Shown here one piece after another: positions 35,063 to 38,284 of a DNA stretch of 64,000 nucleotides. The stretch is from contig CAZDCF010000005.1 in NCBI GenBank assembly GCA_964503895.1, positions 16,972 through 80,971 of the forward strand, written 5' to 3'. The translations under genes were made by a program, and so were the position numbers. The number at the start of each line of letters is the position of its first letter. Position 1 is the first letter of the stretch. The notes under the pieces were generated by a model that saw only the letters and a list, made by a program, of their open reading frames with translations, did not search any database and was not told the DNA's origin. The DNA is from an uncultured Nitrospiraceae bacterium. Its GTDB lineage: Bacteria; Nitrospirota; Nitrospiria; Nitrospirales; UBA8639.

Positions 35063-35217
35063 AATTCAGGAATTCTTGGCAAACCTACAAAATTTCGCCT
35101 GATAGAAATTTTCATTTTTTTTAAGACTGAAATGAATCGGCAGGAGCAAATAACGGCTAATCGAAATTCAAATCACCATCAAGCTTTAAAAAAGGAGAAT
35201 GATGTTTTCTAATAAAG

Positions 35218-35247
35218 ACGCTAGCACTGGACCAAAAAACCTGTCAA
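35218..35247 (-). promoter_or_regulatory. sigma70-type promoter of the MFS gene
   Basis: TTGACA-18nt-TAGCGT. Confidence 0.45.
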
Positions 35248-35300
35248 ACCCATTCATGTTTGTACTTCCTTTCAAATATTGTTAATATTTTCCCTCATTC

Positions 35301-37160
35301 ATGCCTCCTGCAATTCACCCAGTTGATCTCATTCAAGTCCTCCGGCATAAACACCTTACCCCGGCCATTATCTTTCTTACCTCCAGACGGGCTTGCGACG
35401 AAGCCCTCGATAGTTTCGAGTATCGCCATGTTCCTCTTCCTCCAAAAAGGACAGCCGCCCTAAAGAAGGTATTAGCGCCCATCATTGAAGAATTCCCTAG
35501 TATCGCACATCACCCGTTTATTCCCATGGTAGAACAATATGGCGTAGCTGCCCATCATGCCGGCCACCTCCCATCTTGGAAAATTGCCGTAGAAGAACTC
35601 ATGCGCAAAGGCTGCCTTGATGCAGTCTTTGCCACCACTACCCTAGCAGCAGGAGTAGACTTTCCCGCAAGAACCGTAGTCATCACACAATCAAGTGTAC
35701 GGAAAGCGCGAGACTTTATGGAGTTATCGGTAAGTGAAATTCAACAACTCGCCGGAAGGGGGGGGCGGCGAGGAAAAGATTTTGTCGGCTTTGTGGTAGT
35801 TACACCTTCACCATACATCGATATCAGCCACATCGCCAAAGGATTAACGGGAAATCCAGAAGCCATCGATAGTCAGTTTGTGGTTTCGTATCCTATGGTG
35901 CTGAATTTATTGAAAGCCCATTCCATTGAGCACATTCAACCAATCCTGGAAAAAAGTTTTTCCCAATTTCAGCTCAACCAACGCGCCGATAGCTTAGAGT
36001 CAAAACTCGATGGATCGGAACAACAGTTAATCAAATTTGGCCAACGAGAATGCACGGATTGGATCACACAATGGCAATCTTTCGAATTGGCTAAACGCCG
36101 GCGGTCACAGCGACATTTCAAAGTCCGTCACGAACCGCCCGAGGTCAATGCCCGCCTGGCCTTTATGACCCCAGGACGGGTCATAGGACTAACTCGTGAA
36201 AAGGCGATTGTGCTTCGACAATATCGGACCCGCGGCCAAGCACATGCCATGTTAACCGTGCTCCGTAGCCGAGGACGCATTCTCGAATATCCCGCAGGTT
36301 CAGTGACAGAAGTATTTGACCAGGTATTAGATATAGTGGAAACGCGATCGTTTCCCTGGTGTAATACAGGAAGTTTGGACCATGCTATTCAAGAACTCGA
36401 CAGATTACCAACTCGATTACGCCATTTGCCTATCCGTGTAGAAGAGGATACGTCGGAAAATCCTATCCTCGCGGAAACCTTACGTGATGAATTTCCCTGT
36501 CCCACATGCCCTTCACAGCATGCCTGTCGAAAAGATCATCCACGAGCCTTGCGGTTACGACAAGAGAGCCATCGACTCACAAAGACCATTCACACACTGC
36601 GAACCGAATTATGGCACCGCTTTCAACAACATATCGAAATCTTGCAAAAGTTTGGGTACCTCACCACAACATGTCAGCTGACCTCAGATGGCGAATGGGC
36701 AAGACTTATTCGAATCAATCACTCTTTGCTCATTACAGAACTCATTCGCATGGATGCATTTACAGGTACTGAACCCGCTATCCTTACCGGAGTACTTGCC
36801 AGCATTTCCCACGATGACGATCGTCCCGGCGCCTTTCCACGGCGAAGTTCTGCCCTGGGTAACGTTTTAAGAAAAGTCCAAACCGTAGCTCATTCACTTG
36901 AGGCATACGAAGATTCTCCGCTTCTTCGTTCAGACGTTGCCTCAATCGCTGAAATGTGGGTGGCGGAACCTCATTTGCCGTGGAGTCAATTAATTCGGAT
37001 GACTACCATGGCGGAGGGAGATATATATCGATTACTCGCTCGCACATTGGAATATTTATCACAACTATACAGTTTAAAGGCCACTCACCCAGGCCTAGCC
37101 AATATTGCTGATCAGGCCATGGAAACCATACGCCGCGATGTACTTGAGGAACTACCATAA
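35301..37160 (+). CDS. Ski2/HelY-like helicase, C-terminal half (RecA2, insertion, DSHCT-like)
   Basis: PAIIFLTSRRACD (IV), HHAG, ATTTLAAGVDFPAR (V), QLAGRGGRRG (VI); no Walker A or motif II. Confidence 0.88.
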   Translation: MPPAIHPVDLIQVLRHKHLTPAIIFLTSRRACDEALDSFEYRHVPLPPKRTAALKKVLAPIIEEFPSIAHHPFIPMVEQYGVAAHHAGHLPSWKIAVEELMRKGCLDAVFATTTLAAGVDFPARTVVITQSSVRKARDFMELSVSEIQQLAGRGGRRGKDFVGFVVVTPSPYIDISHIAKGLTGNPEAIDSQFVVSYPMVLNLLKAHSIEHIQPILEKSFSQFQLNQRADSLESKLDGSEQQLIKFGQRECTDWITQWQSFELAKRRRSQRHFKVRHEPPEVNARLAFMTPGRVIGLTREKAIVLRQYRTRGQAHAMLTVLRSRGRILEYPAGSVTEVFDQVLDIVETRSFPWCNTGSLDHAIQELDRLPTRLRHLPIRVEEDTSENPILAETLRDEFPCPTCPSQHACRKDHPRALRLRQESHRLTKTIHTLRTELWHRFQQHIEILQKFGYLTTTCQLTSDGEWARLIRINHSLLITELIRMDAFTGTEPAILTGVLASISHDDDRPGAFPRRSSALGNVLRKVQTVAHSLEAYEDSPLLRSDVASIAEMWVAEPHLPWSQLIRMTTMAEGDIYRLLARTLEYLSQLYSLKATHPGLANIADQAMETIRRDVLEELP

Positions 37161-37216
37161 TCCCAAATTCCTCGCTTTTGTTAGGGGAAGTAGTTAAGAA
37201 CAAATAGACAAATGCT

Positions 37217-38284
37217 ATGAATAACGACGAACTAACACAACGGCTCTACGATCAACCTGTTAGCCTACTGCATCGATTAGCCAAAGGTCGTGTAGCTCGT
37301 CACTTTCGAATGGGGAAGCCTCGAATCATTCAATGCCTACTAGAACTTTCTCAAGAAAAACGCAGTCGACTCATCGTTGAATTGGAAAACTTGATTGATG
37401 CTACCGCCCATACTGAACCAATTGATAAGCGGTCCACACAGCCAAAACCCAAGGAGCAAAAAACAAAAACTAGCCCGCCGAAAAAATTTAAACCACGGAC
37501 CCCCGAGCCCCCGTCGAAACCAGCCATCACTGCCTCAGAATTATTGGAAGGGATTGGCGTTCCTTCACCAAAGGAATTTAAACCAGACTTATGGCAAAAA
37601 GAAGCGATCGATCATTTAGCCACGAGTGATGTAATTGTGAGCGTACCCACCGGGAGCGGAAAAACTTACGTGGCGATAGAAGCTATGCGGCGTACCATCA
37701 ACGAAGACCGAACCATCATCTACACTTCCCCACTTAAAGCATTATCAAACACTAAACTCACAGAATTTTCCCATATCTTCGGCGCAAAAAAAGTCGGTAT
37801 TCTCACAGGAGATCGTCGAGACAACCCGCAAGCCCCGATCCTGATCATGACAACAGAGATTCTTCGAAATTTACTCTATGATGCAGCCAGTGGTGAAACC
37901 GATATGCGACTCGATACGTTGGGATTGGTCATCTTAGATGAATCACAGTTCATCGCAGATCCTGAACGCGGGGTAGTCTGGGAAGAAACCATCATCTTTT
38001 GTCCAACGCAATCACGGCTATTATTACTCTCGGCTTCTATCGGAAACCCAGACGAAATTTCTGCCTGGATGAGTTCAATTCGATCAAGACCCTGCCATCT
38101 CATTCACCATCGCGACCGATCCGTTCCGTTAAGGGCAGCTTACCTCGATCCATCAGGCAAACTCTCTCCATTGTTTCACAACAAAGATATCACCCACGGC
38201 AAGGGCTTCACCCTGCACCCAGAAACTAAATACCTCTTCACTCAATACGAAGACCAAACTTTTAGACCTAAGCATCGCAGATAA
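37217..38284 (+). CDS. Ski2/HelY-like helicase, N-terminal half (RecA1) with extra N-terminal helical domain
   Basis: WQKEAI, PTGSGKT (I), SPLKALSN (Ia), TTEILRN (Ib), DESQ (II), SAS (III), RSVPL. Confidence 0.88.
   Translation: MNNDELTQRLYDQPVSLLHRLAKGRVARHFRMGKPRIIQCLLELSQEKRSRLIVELENLIDATAHTEPIDKRSTQPKPKEQKTKTSPPKKFKPRTPEPPSKPAITASELLEGIGVPSPKEFKPDLWQKEAIDHLATSDVIVSVPTGSGKTYVAIEAMRRTINEDRTIIYTSPLKALSNTKLTEFSHIFGAKKVGILTGDRRDNPQAPILIMTTEILRNLLYDAASGETDMRLDTLGLVILDESQFIADPERGVVWEETIIFCPTQSRLLLLSASIGNPDEISAWMSSIRSRPCHLIHHRDRSVPLRAAYLDPSGKLSPLFHNKDITHGKGFTLHPETKYLFTQYEDQTFRPKHRR

Follow-up and report, generated by a model that had tools for sequence, protein, structure and literature searches.

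Two adjacent genes in swapped order likely encode the halves of a Ski2/HelY-like helicase in Nitrospirales

We analysed a stretch of 64,000 nucleotides (nt), here called the window, from an uncultured Nitrospiraceae bacterium (assembly GCA_964503895.1, contig CAZDCF010000005.1, positions 16,972 to 80,971), in which two neighboring genes on the + strand each resemble one part of a Ski2/HelY-like superfamily 2 (SF2) helicase. The upstream open reading frame (ORF-C, 35301-37160, +) encodes the C-half, a protein of 619 amino acids (aa) comprising most of the RecA2 domain (motifs IV, V and VI), a winged helix, a putative stalk and KOW-like arch, a CxxC-x5-C knuckle and a helical-bundle/DSHCT region. 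The downstream frame (ORF-N, 37217-38284, +) encodes the N-half, a protein of 355 aa with a helical N-terminal domain, a Lys/Pro-rich linker, the RecA1 domain (motifs Q to III) and a tail made of a hairpin and a helix. A spacer of 56 nt (37161-37216, +) separates the stop codon (TAA) of the C-half gene from the ATG of the N-half gene, and no terminator-like or promoter-like site was detected in it. The promoter for the pair is presumed to lie in the intergenic region 5' of the C-half gene (35063-35300, +), beyond which a gene of major facilitator superfamily (MFS) type is encoded divergently on the - strand; a simple sigma-70 scan of this region returned no site. Since the genes flanking the pair on either side are on the - strand, the pair constitutes its own unit. 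The window is part of a 1.84-Mb metagenome-assembled genome (MAG) of 135 contigs, which contains one copy of each half.

Searches against Pfam matched ORF-C to Helicase_C (aa 78-158) and DSHCT (PF08148, aa 459-615, E 1.9e-23, corresponding to 36675-37145, +), with a weak MTR4 stalk match under the cutoff (19 bits). ORF-N matched DEAD (aa 127-279, E 9e-22) and also DEXQc_Suv3. No NCBIfam model was reached by either half, and only partial matches of Hel308 type were obtained, at residues 240-456 of ORF-C and 28-207 of ORF-N. The helicase motifs are divided between the two proteins without overlap. The RecA1 motif span of the N-half (37577-38038, +) contains the Q-like motif (37577-37606), motif I PTGSGKT (37646-37666), motif Ia TSPLKALSN (37724-37750), motif Ib TGDR, motif Ic TTEILRN, motif II DESQ (37937-37948) and motif III SAS (38030-38038), while the RecA2 catalytic motif span of the C-half (35358-35780, +) contains motif IV TPAIIFLTSRR (35358-35390), HHAGHLPSWK (35553-35582), motif V FATTTLAAGVDFPAR (35628-35672) and motif VI QLAGRGGRRGKD with the arginine fingers (35745-35780).

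The best matches among solved structures are MTR4 and SKI2 (phmmer against PDB sequences, E 1e-31 to 1e-39). In the numbering of human MTR4 (6d6q_M), ORF-N aa 121-314 correspond to residues 141-327 and ORF-C from aa 10 onward corresponds to the sequence from residue 380; in the alignment with SKI2W, ORF-N stops at 539 and ORF-C begins at 556. The two chains therefore sum to one canonical helicase with neither loss nor duplication. An earlier note on this DNA, made from the letters and open reading frames alone, had described just such a split in permuted order with no obvious loss or duplication at the break, and the complementary domains and motifs found with Pfam and phmmer, together with the MTR4 and SKI2W alignments, bear this description out. 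The presence of both RecA domains in one polypeptide is a feature of the Ski2-like group, and here and across Nitrospirales they are found in two reading frames. We consider it likely that the pair represents the two halves of an SF2 helicase of Ski2/Mtr4/HelY-like type with a DSHCT domain, the gene for which has undergone fission.

The break itself does not coincide with the RecA1/RecA2 hinge. The N-half runs about 50 residues beyond the R-x-V-P-L end of its RecA1 domain (RSVPL), through a hairpin RAAYLDPSGKLSPLF and a conserved helix HPETKYLFTQYE to a basic end (tail at 38117-38281, +), and the C-half begins about 19 residues ahead of the motif IV strand. Sequence comparison places the break in a variable basic loop some 50 residues past the end of RecA1. 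The earlier note had located it at the RecA1/RecA2 linker; the clean split between motifs III and IV stands, but the position at the hinge does not. The tail hairpin is, by comparison with Hel308 and DExH helicase structures, presumably part of the RecA2 sheet. If so, RecA2 itself is cut, at a loop whose length is large and variable in Mtr4/Ski2, and the inter-domain hinge is not the site of the cut. Judging from the alignments, the N-half tail is homologous to the first elements that follow RecA1 in Ski2/Mtr4, and it is a candidate docking element for the C-half. At its other end the N-half carries an extension (37217-37570, +) formed by a conserved domain of 3-4 helices (approximately aa 1-62) and a disordered Lys/Pro-rich linker that reaches approximately aa 118. 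No family was assigned to the N-half N-terminal domain or to the tail in Pfam searches at lenient thresholds.

The arrangement is conserved throughout the order. We surveyed 40 relatives belonging to four families (f1-f4) and 19 genera of Nitrospirales, in which the halves are separate open frames of approximately 355 and 620 aa. In f1-f3 the halves are adjacent and share a strand, the C-half gene being the upstream one, in all 32 genomes in which both were found (32/32). A named GTDB sample, which probably overlaps with the survey in its genomes, yielded 34 further C-then-N loci, including one on the complete chromosome of Ca. Nitrospira defluvii. Among named relatives, Ca. Nitronereus thalassa is the closest (83% identity). 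Genomes without one half are either incomplete or have contig ends beside the half that was found, as in G034, where the contig ends 160 nt past ORF-C. The N-terminal extension of the N-half is present in f1-f3 and missing in f4, and in all five f4 genomes (5/5) the halves are unlinked, either on separate contigs or at a distance of 13.6 kb from each other; in one of these genomes (G027) each half is monocistronic amid unrelated genes, with an N-half devoid of the extension.

Both halves are under purifying selection, with pairwise ratios of nonsynonymous to synonymous substitution rates (dN/dS) of 0.04-0.12 for ORF-C and 0.09-0.17 for ORF-N, dS being near saturation in the more distant pairs. 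Over 16 Nitrospirales, 205 of 625 alignment columns are invariant in ORF-C and 121 of 369 in ORF-N, and all helicase motifs, the tail elements of ORF-N and the ORF-C start MPP[AS]IHP are kept. It could be supposed that the two genes are an assembly artefact or a decaying pseudogene, that is, a fused gene that was mis-joined or broken into non-functional pieces, as the window does derive from a MAG in 135 contigs. However, the same arrangement recurs in dozens of independent assemblies, among them genomes of one and two contigs, and the reading frames are intact, strongly constrained and invariant in their motifs. Such cross-genome conservation effectively refutes this explanation, to which we attach practically no probability. 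The earlier note had also allowed that relatives might all carry a fused gene while the halves here show relaxed selection; on the contrary, the relatives in Nitrospirales are split and dN/dS remains at 0.04-0.17. We conclude that the arrangement is real, old and selected.

Several irregular loci were recorded alongside these. In G033, a member of f4, the N-half is broken into two pieces that lie near the end of a contig and are read from opposite strands (G033:C128:27734-28165, L043), which is likely an assembly artefact. Two contigs labelled Planctomycetaceae and Nitrospinota (L061 and L120) encode C-halves 61-71% identical to that of the window; both contigs probably belong to Nitrospirales and were placed in the wrong bin, transfer being the less probable explanation.

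The spacer varies among relatives from a 4-nt overlap in f3 to 217 nt, and overlaps of C stop and N start such as those in f3 are, as sequence features, typical of translational coupling. At two loci from Nitrospiraceae MAGs, L060 (3986-6919) and L063 (3519-6452), the two frames are in register with one TGA between them, such that read-through would yield a chain of 977 aa. These loci favor the possibility that a single permuted polypeptide is made by stop read-through, frameshifting or trans-splicing of intein type. Against this, the frames differ at most loci, and the spacer takes values between -4 and 217 nt; in f4 each gene has a contig of its own; and no intein-like extra sequence is present, the chains adding up to a canonical helicase. 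Split-intein trans-splicing was examined as a candidate in its own right and rejected, as the junction holds no extra residues and intein fragments were not encountered. Since most loci differ in frame, the shared frame at L060 and L063 is probably due to chance, and we regard production of a single chain as very improbable.

The halves are more likely to be two subunits of one enzyme, in which the N-half would supply the motifs for ATP binding and hydrolysis (Q, I, II and III) along with its hairpin-and-helix tail. From the C-half would come motifs IV-VI, including the arginine fingers, as well as the winged helix, the putative arch and the ratchet/DSHCT bundle. The active enzyme would form by non-covalent association, with ATP bound at the subunit interface, and would probably function in a manner resembling HelY/Mtr4, as an RNA helicase of 3'-to-5' polarity that takes part in the processing or decay of RNA. 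SF2 helicases are single-chain motors whose two RecA domains close on ATP by way of a covalent hinge. With Walker A and B on the N-half and the motif VI arginines on the C-half, the established SF2 mechanism implies that the active enzyme must be a heteromer; we infer both the assembly of a heterodimer and an RNA substrate.

AlphaFold modelled the L060 N-half (17-row multiple sequence alignment, MSA) with a mean predicted local distance difference test score (pLDDT) of 80. In this model aa 1-64 make up a helical N-terminal domain and aa 67-96 a disordered linker, RecA1 is predicted with confidence, and the tail consists of two short strands and one helix. In place of a multimer we modelled the natural in-frame C-TGA-N read-through chain of L060 with a 34-row unpaired MSA. 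Long helices flank a five-strand barrel at aa 293-342 of the read-through model, and Foldseek matched it to Mtr4, FRH and Ski2 at E ~1e-30 over ~690 aligned columns, which supports an Mtr4-like predicted architecture of the C-half with stalk, small barrel and ratchet bundle. In a phmmer alignment the ORF-C segment PGRVIGL corresponds to FLQPGRLVKV of Mtr4, a segment that we take to be the start of the KOW barrel of that protein. The C-half has a conserved CPTCPSQHAC (36498-36527; CPxC-x5-C with His) after its KOW-like barrel and before its long return helix, and this knuckle, by its sequence pattern, may bind zinc. Comparable arrangements of Cys are also found in an Acidobacteriota C-half protein of Blastocatellia type (P0126) and in a fused relative (P0130).

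The case for one cooperating helicase is weakened by a number of these and other results. The L060 read-through model, at a mean pLDDT of 80.8, reached a predicted template modelling score (pTM) of 0.52 with its unpaired stand-in MSA, and the N-half tail scored a pLDDT of 53-67 in this chain as compared with 65-90 in the N-half alone. In one Nitrospira MAG (L058, 3986-7077) the C-half gene has no N-half partner inside a 4-kb range and is followed by a gene for an NAD-dependent epimerase; either the halves have become unlinked here too or the contig is chimeric. Finally, motif II is DESQ instead of DEAH. It is DESQ in 16/16 aligned Nitrospirales, as against DEAH/DEVH in the Acidobacteriota halves and in the fused relative L068. 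A DExQ motif II is known in Suv3, and by analogy DESQ is probably tolerated. Directly before motif II, Nitrospirales also share a 3-residue insertion. The heterodimeric helicase envisaged in the earlier note is therefore only partly sustained: the ATP-site motifs are on separate polypeptides and all are kept, but the read-through model gave docking no support, though it did not refute it either.

The same model, taken with the unlinked halves of f4, of many Acidobacteriota and of L058, would suit halves that no longer cooperate, for example a C-half acting as an RNA-binding adaptor and an N-half acting as a stand-alone NTPase. Yet motifs that are meaningful only together (Walker A/B on one side, motif V and the motif VI arginines on the other) are kept on both chains, the halves co-occur wherever assemblies permit judgement (the apparent exceptions are at contig breaks), and they are adjacent in three families, some with the 4-nt overlap. 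We therefore find separate roles quite unlikely, and retain association of the two halves as the favored interpretation.

The earlier note went further in proposing that the split serves regulation, either through controlled assembly or through exchange of motor halves among partners. Separate transcription of the halves in f4 would permit separate control, and the N-half of Nitrospirales has gained a helical N-terminal domain of its own. On the other hand, the genome holds no second C-half-like or N-half-like partner, and co-oriented adjacency, the lack of a terminator-like site in the window spacer and the f3 overlaps all point to co-expression in most lineages, so we judge a regulatory purpose to be unlikely. 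It is similarly doubtful, in our estimate, that the pair exemplifies an undescribed class of obligate two-subunit Ski2/HelY-like helicases spanning at least three phyla, in which the ATPase site would be formed in trans, activity would be gated by subunit supply or assembly, and the C-then-N order and new N-terminal domain would have arisen as adaptations that let the subunits assemble co-translationally in a set order.

Nitrospirales are the one order of the phylum in which the N-half was detected, with 24/25 sampled f1/f2 genomes besides that of the window having it; ~125 genomes of other families of the phylum gave nothing beyond a generic helicase match. In a full-library search with ORF-C, the relatives that follow the Nitrospirales cluster do not exceed 39% identity. 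The majority are fused proteins of ~700-920 aa (31-39% identity), which match ORF-C from approximately residue 240-290 onward and also match ORF-N. Other lineages encode C-half-only proteins beginning at the same point. In a family of Acidobacteriota (P0132), a C-half of ~617-621 aa is encoded 129 nt downstream of a gene for a 301-aa N-half, and the N-half is also upstream in the relatives of P0126, the nearest outgroup. In Bdellovibrionota/Oligoflexia (P0170), a C-half of ~470-500 aa abuts a gene for an N-half of 259-284 aa, in one case (L128) in the same frame. The N-terminus of the Acidobacteriota and fused relatives consists of basic low-complexity sequence only.

We counted gene order over 80 named loci. 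Nitrospirales have C then N at every pair, L058 apart; Acidobacteriota have N then C at 18 loci and the C-half alone (4 kb on each side) at about a dozen; and fused genes occur in Desulfobacterota, two MAGs of cyanobacterial lineage and one unclassified MAG. The breakpoints align across the split forms, N-halves ending in an Arg/Lys-rich tail and C-halves starting 18-22 residues before the LLPAIVF strand. Among the genomes searched, the C-then-N order is specific to Nitrospirales. The split itself is not peculiar to the genome of the window: it is order-wide and is also present, in N-to-C order, in Acidobacteriota and Bdellovibrionota.

In a phylogeny of C-halves (LG+G4), the Nitrospirales sequences form one clade (100/100) inside a well-supported clade that contains three other split and three fused clades, whose branching order is not resolved. 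One fused protein of 977 aa (P0145) nests within the split clade of Pyrinomonadaceae type (100/98), which suggests a secondary re-fusion in the sequence record; a gene-call or sequencing artefact is the alternative candidate. Forcing all split forms (and P0145) into one clade is 14 log-likelihood units worse and is not rejected by the approximately unbiased test (AU p = 0.27), so that one ancient fission, followed by transfer and re-fusion, is as possible as several independent fissions at a permissive loop.

The splits in normal order can be explained by a single stop or frameshift. The permuted order lies beyond one frameshift or nonsense change, and on this we agree with the earlier note. 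It needs no exotic origin, however, since halves once separated can move as independent genes, as indicated by their unlinking in f4, many Acidobacteriota and L058. Fission would have come first, and a gene-order change specific to Nitrospirales would then have given C-then-N, either through a translocation or through a tandem duplication of an N-C pair whose outer copies were later lost. The intergenic spaces beside the pair (238 and 60 nt in the ORF list) hold no relic of a duplicated half, and because of this the two routes are not distinguishable. The swapped order is most simply explained as an ordinary rearrangement after fission, and not as a circular permutation of one chain.

Among known helicases, HelY of Mycobacterium (KEGG helY), a bacterial Ski2-like DSHCT helicase, shares with the pair a DExH-type RecA1, RecA2, the winged helix and a ratchet bundle with DSHCT. 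It is one chain of ~900 aa, unlike the pair in the window with its two chains, swapped order, DESQ motif and added N-terminal helical domain. Mycobacterium HelY was reportedly characterised by Uson, Ordonez and Shuman in 2015 as an RNA-stimulated 3'-5' helicase. Fused bacterial relatives of ~900 aa align end to end with the pair at 31-33% identity, and the connection to HelY rests on name labels, such as the JGI label 'ATP-dependent RNA helicase HelY' carried by C-halves of Acidobacteriota and Bdellovibrionota. Eukaryotic Mtr4/Ski2/FRH are the best matches in sequence and fold, the aligned part including a putative stalk and KOW-like barrel, but they are single chains of at least 1000 aa that work with the exosome, which bacteria lack, and identity is only ~20%.

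The closest parallels are the split helicases of Acidobacteriota (Pyrinomonadaceae and Blastocatellia types) and Bdellovibrionota/Oligoflexia. These share the aligned breakpoint and the basic N-half tail, and their C-halves share an M(P/K/R) start ~20 residues before motif IV and belong to the same clade of the C-half tree. They differ in being ordered N then C or unlinked, in having DEAH as motif II and in lacking the helical N-terminal domain; the Bdellovibrionota C-halves (481-494 aa at the loci aligned) are in addition 120-140 aa shorter. Naturally split nucleic-acid motors include the split reverse gyrase of Nanoarchaeum equitans, UvsW/UvsW.1 of phage T4 and Cas3'/Cas3''. As in the window, a helicase-containing enzyme is encoded there by two genes and its reassembly is presumed. 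To our knowledge, the breaks in those three cases lie outside the two-RecA motor core, whereas the break in the window parts RecA1 from most of RecA2 and leaves an ATP site spanning two chains. In our literature searches we met no published account of a Ski2/HelY-like helicase that is split in nature.

The pair thus represents a motor cut between its Walker motifs and arginine fingers and yet selected throughout an order, with counterparts in normal order in two more phyla, and its permuted order is a clear case of fission and rearrangement mimicking circular permutation. If the two-subunit interpretation is true, it would provide a natural system for asking how far the helicase cycle needs a covalent link, as well as a ready-made split-helicase scaffold. 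It is also a cue for annotation, as the halves appear in databases under the names 'hypothetical protein', 'helicase-related protein', 'superfamily II RNA helicase' or 'HelY', and genes labelled 'hypothetical' or 'helicase-related protein' may be thrown out as fragments.

A role as a defence helicase (Hachiman HamB or other) was considered and rejected, PADLOC having given only partial matches of 20-57 bits to the motor core; the neighboring genes and the order-wide distribution, which is like that of a core gene, also speak against it. As read from ORF translations, without a family search, those neighbors include riboflavin synthase, the MFS-like membrane protein, RecO and an MgtE-like protein.

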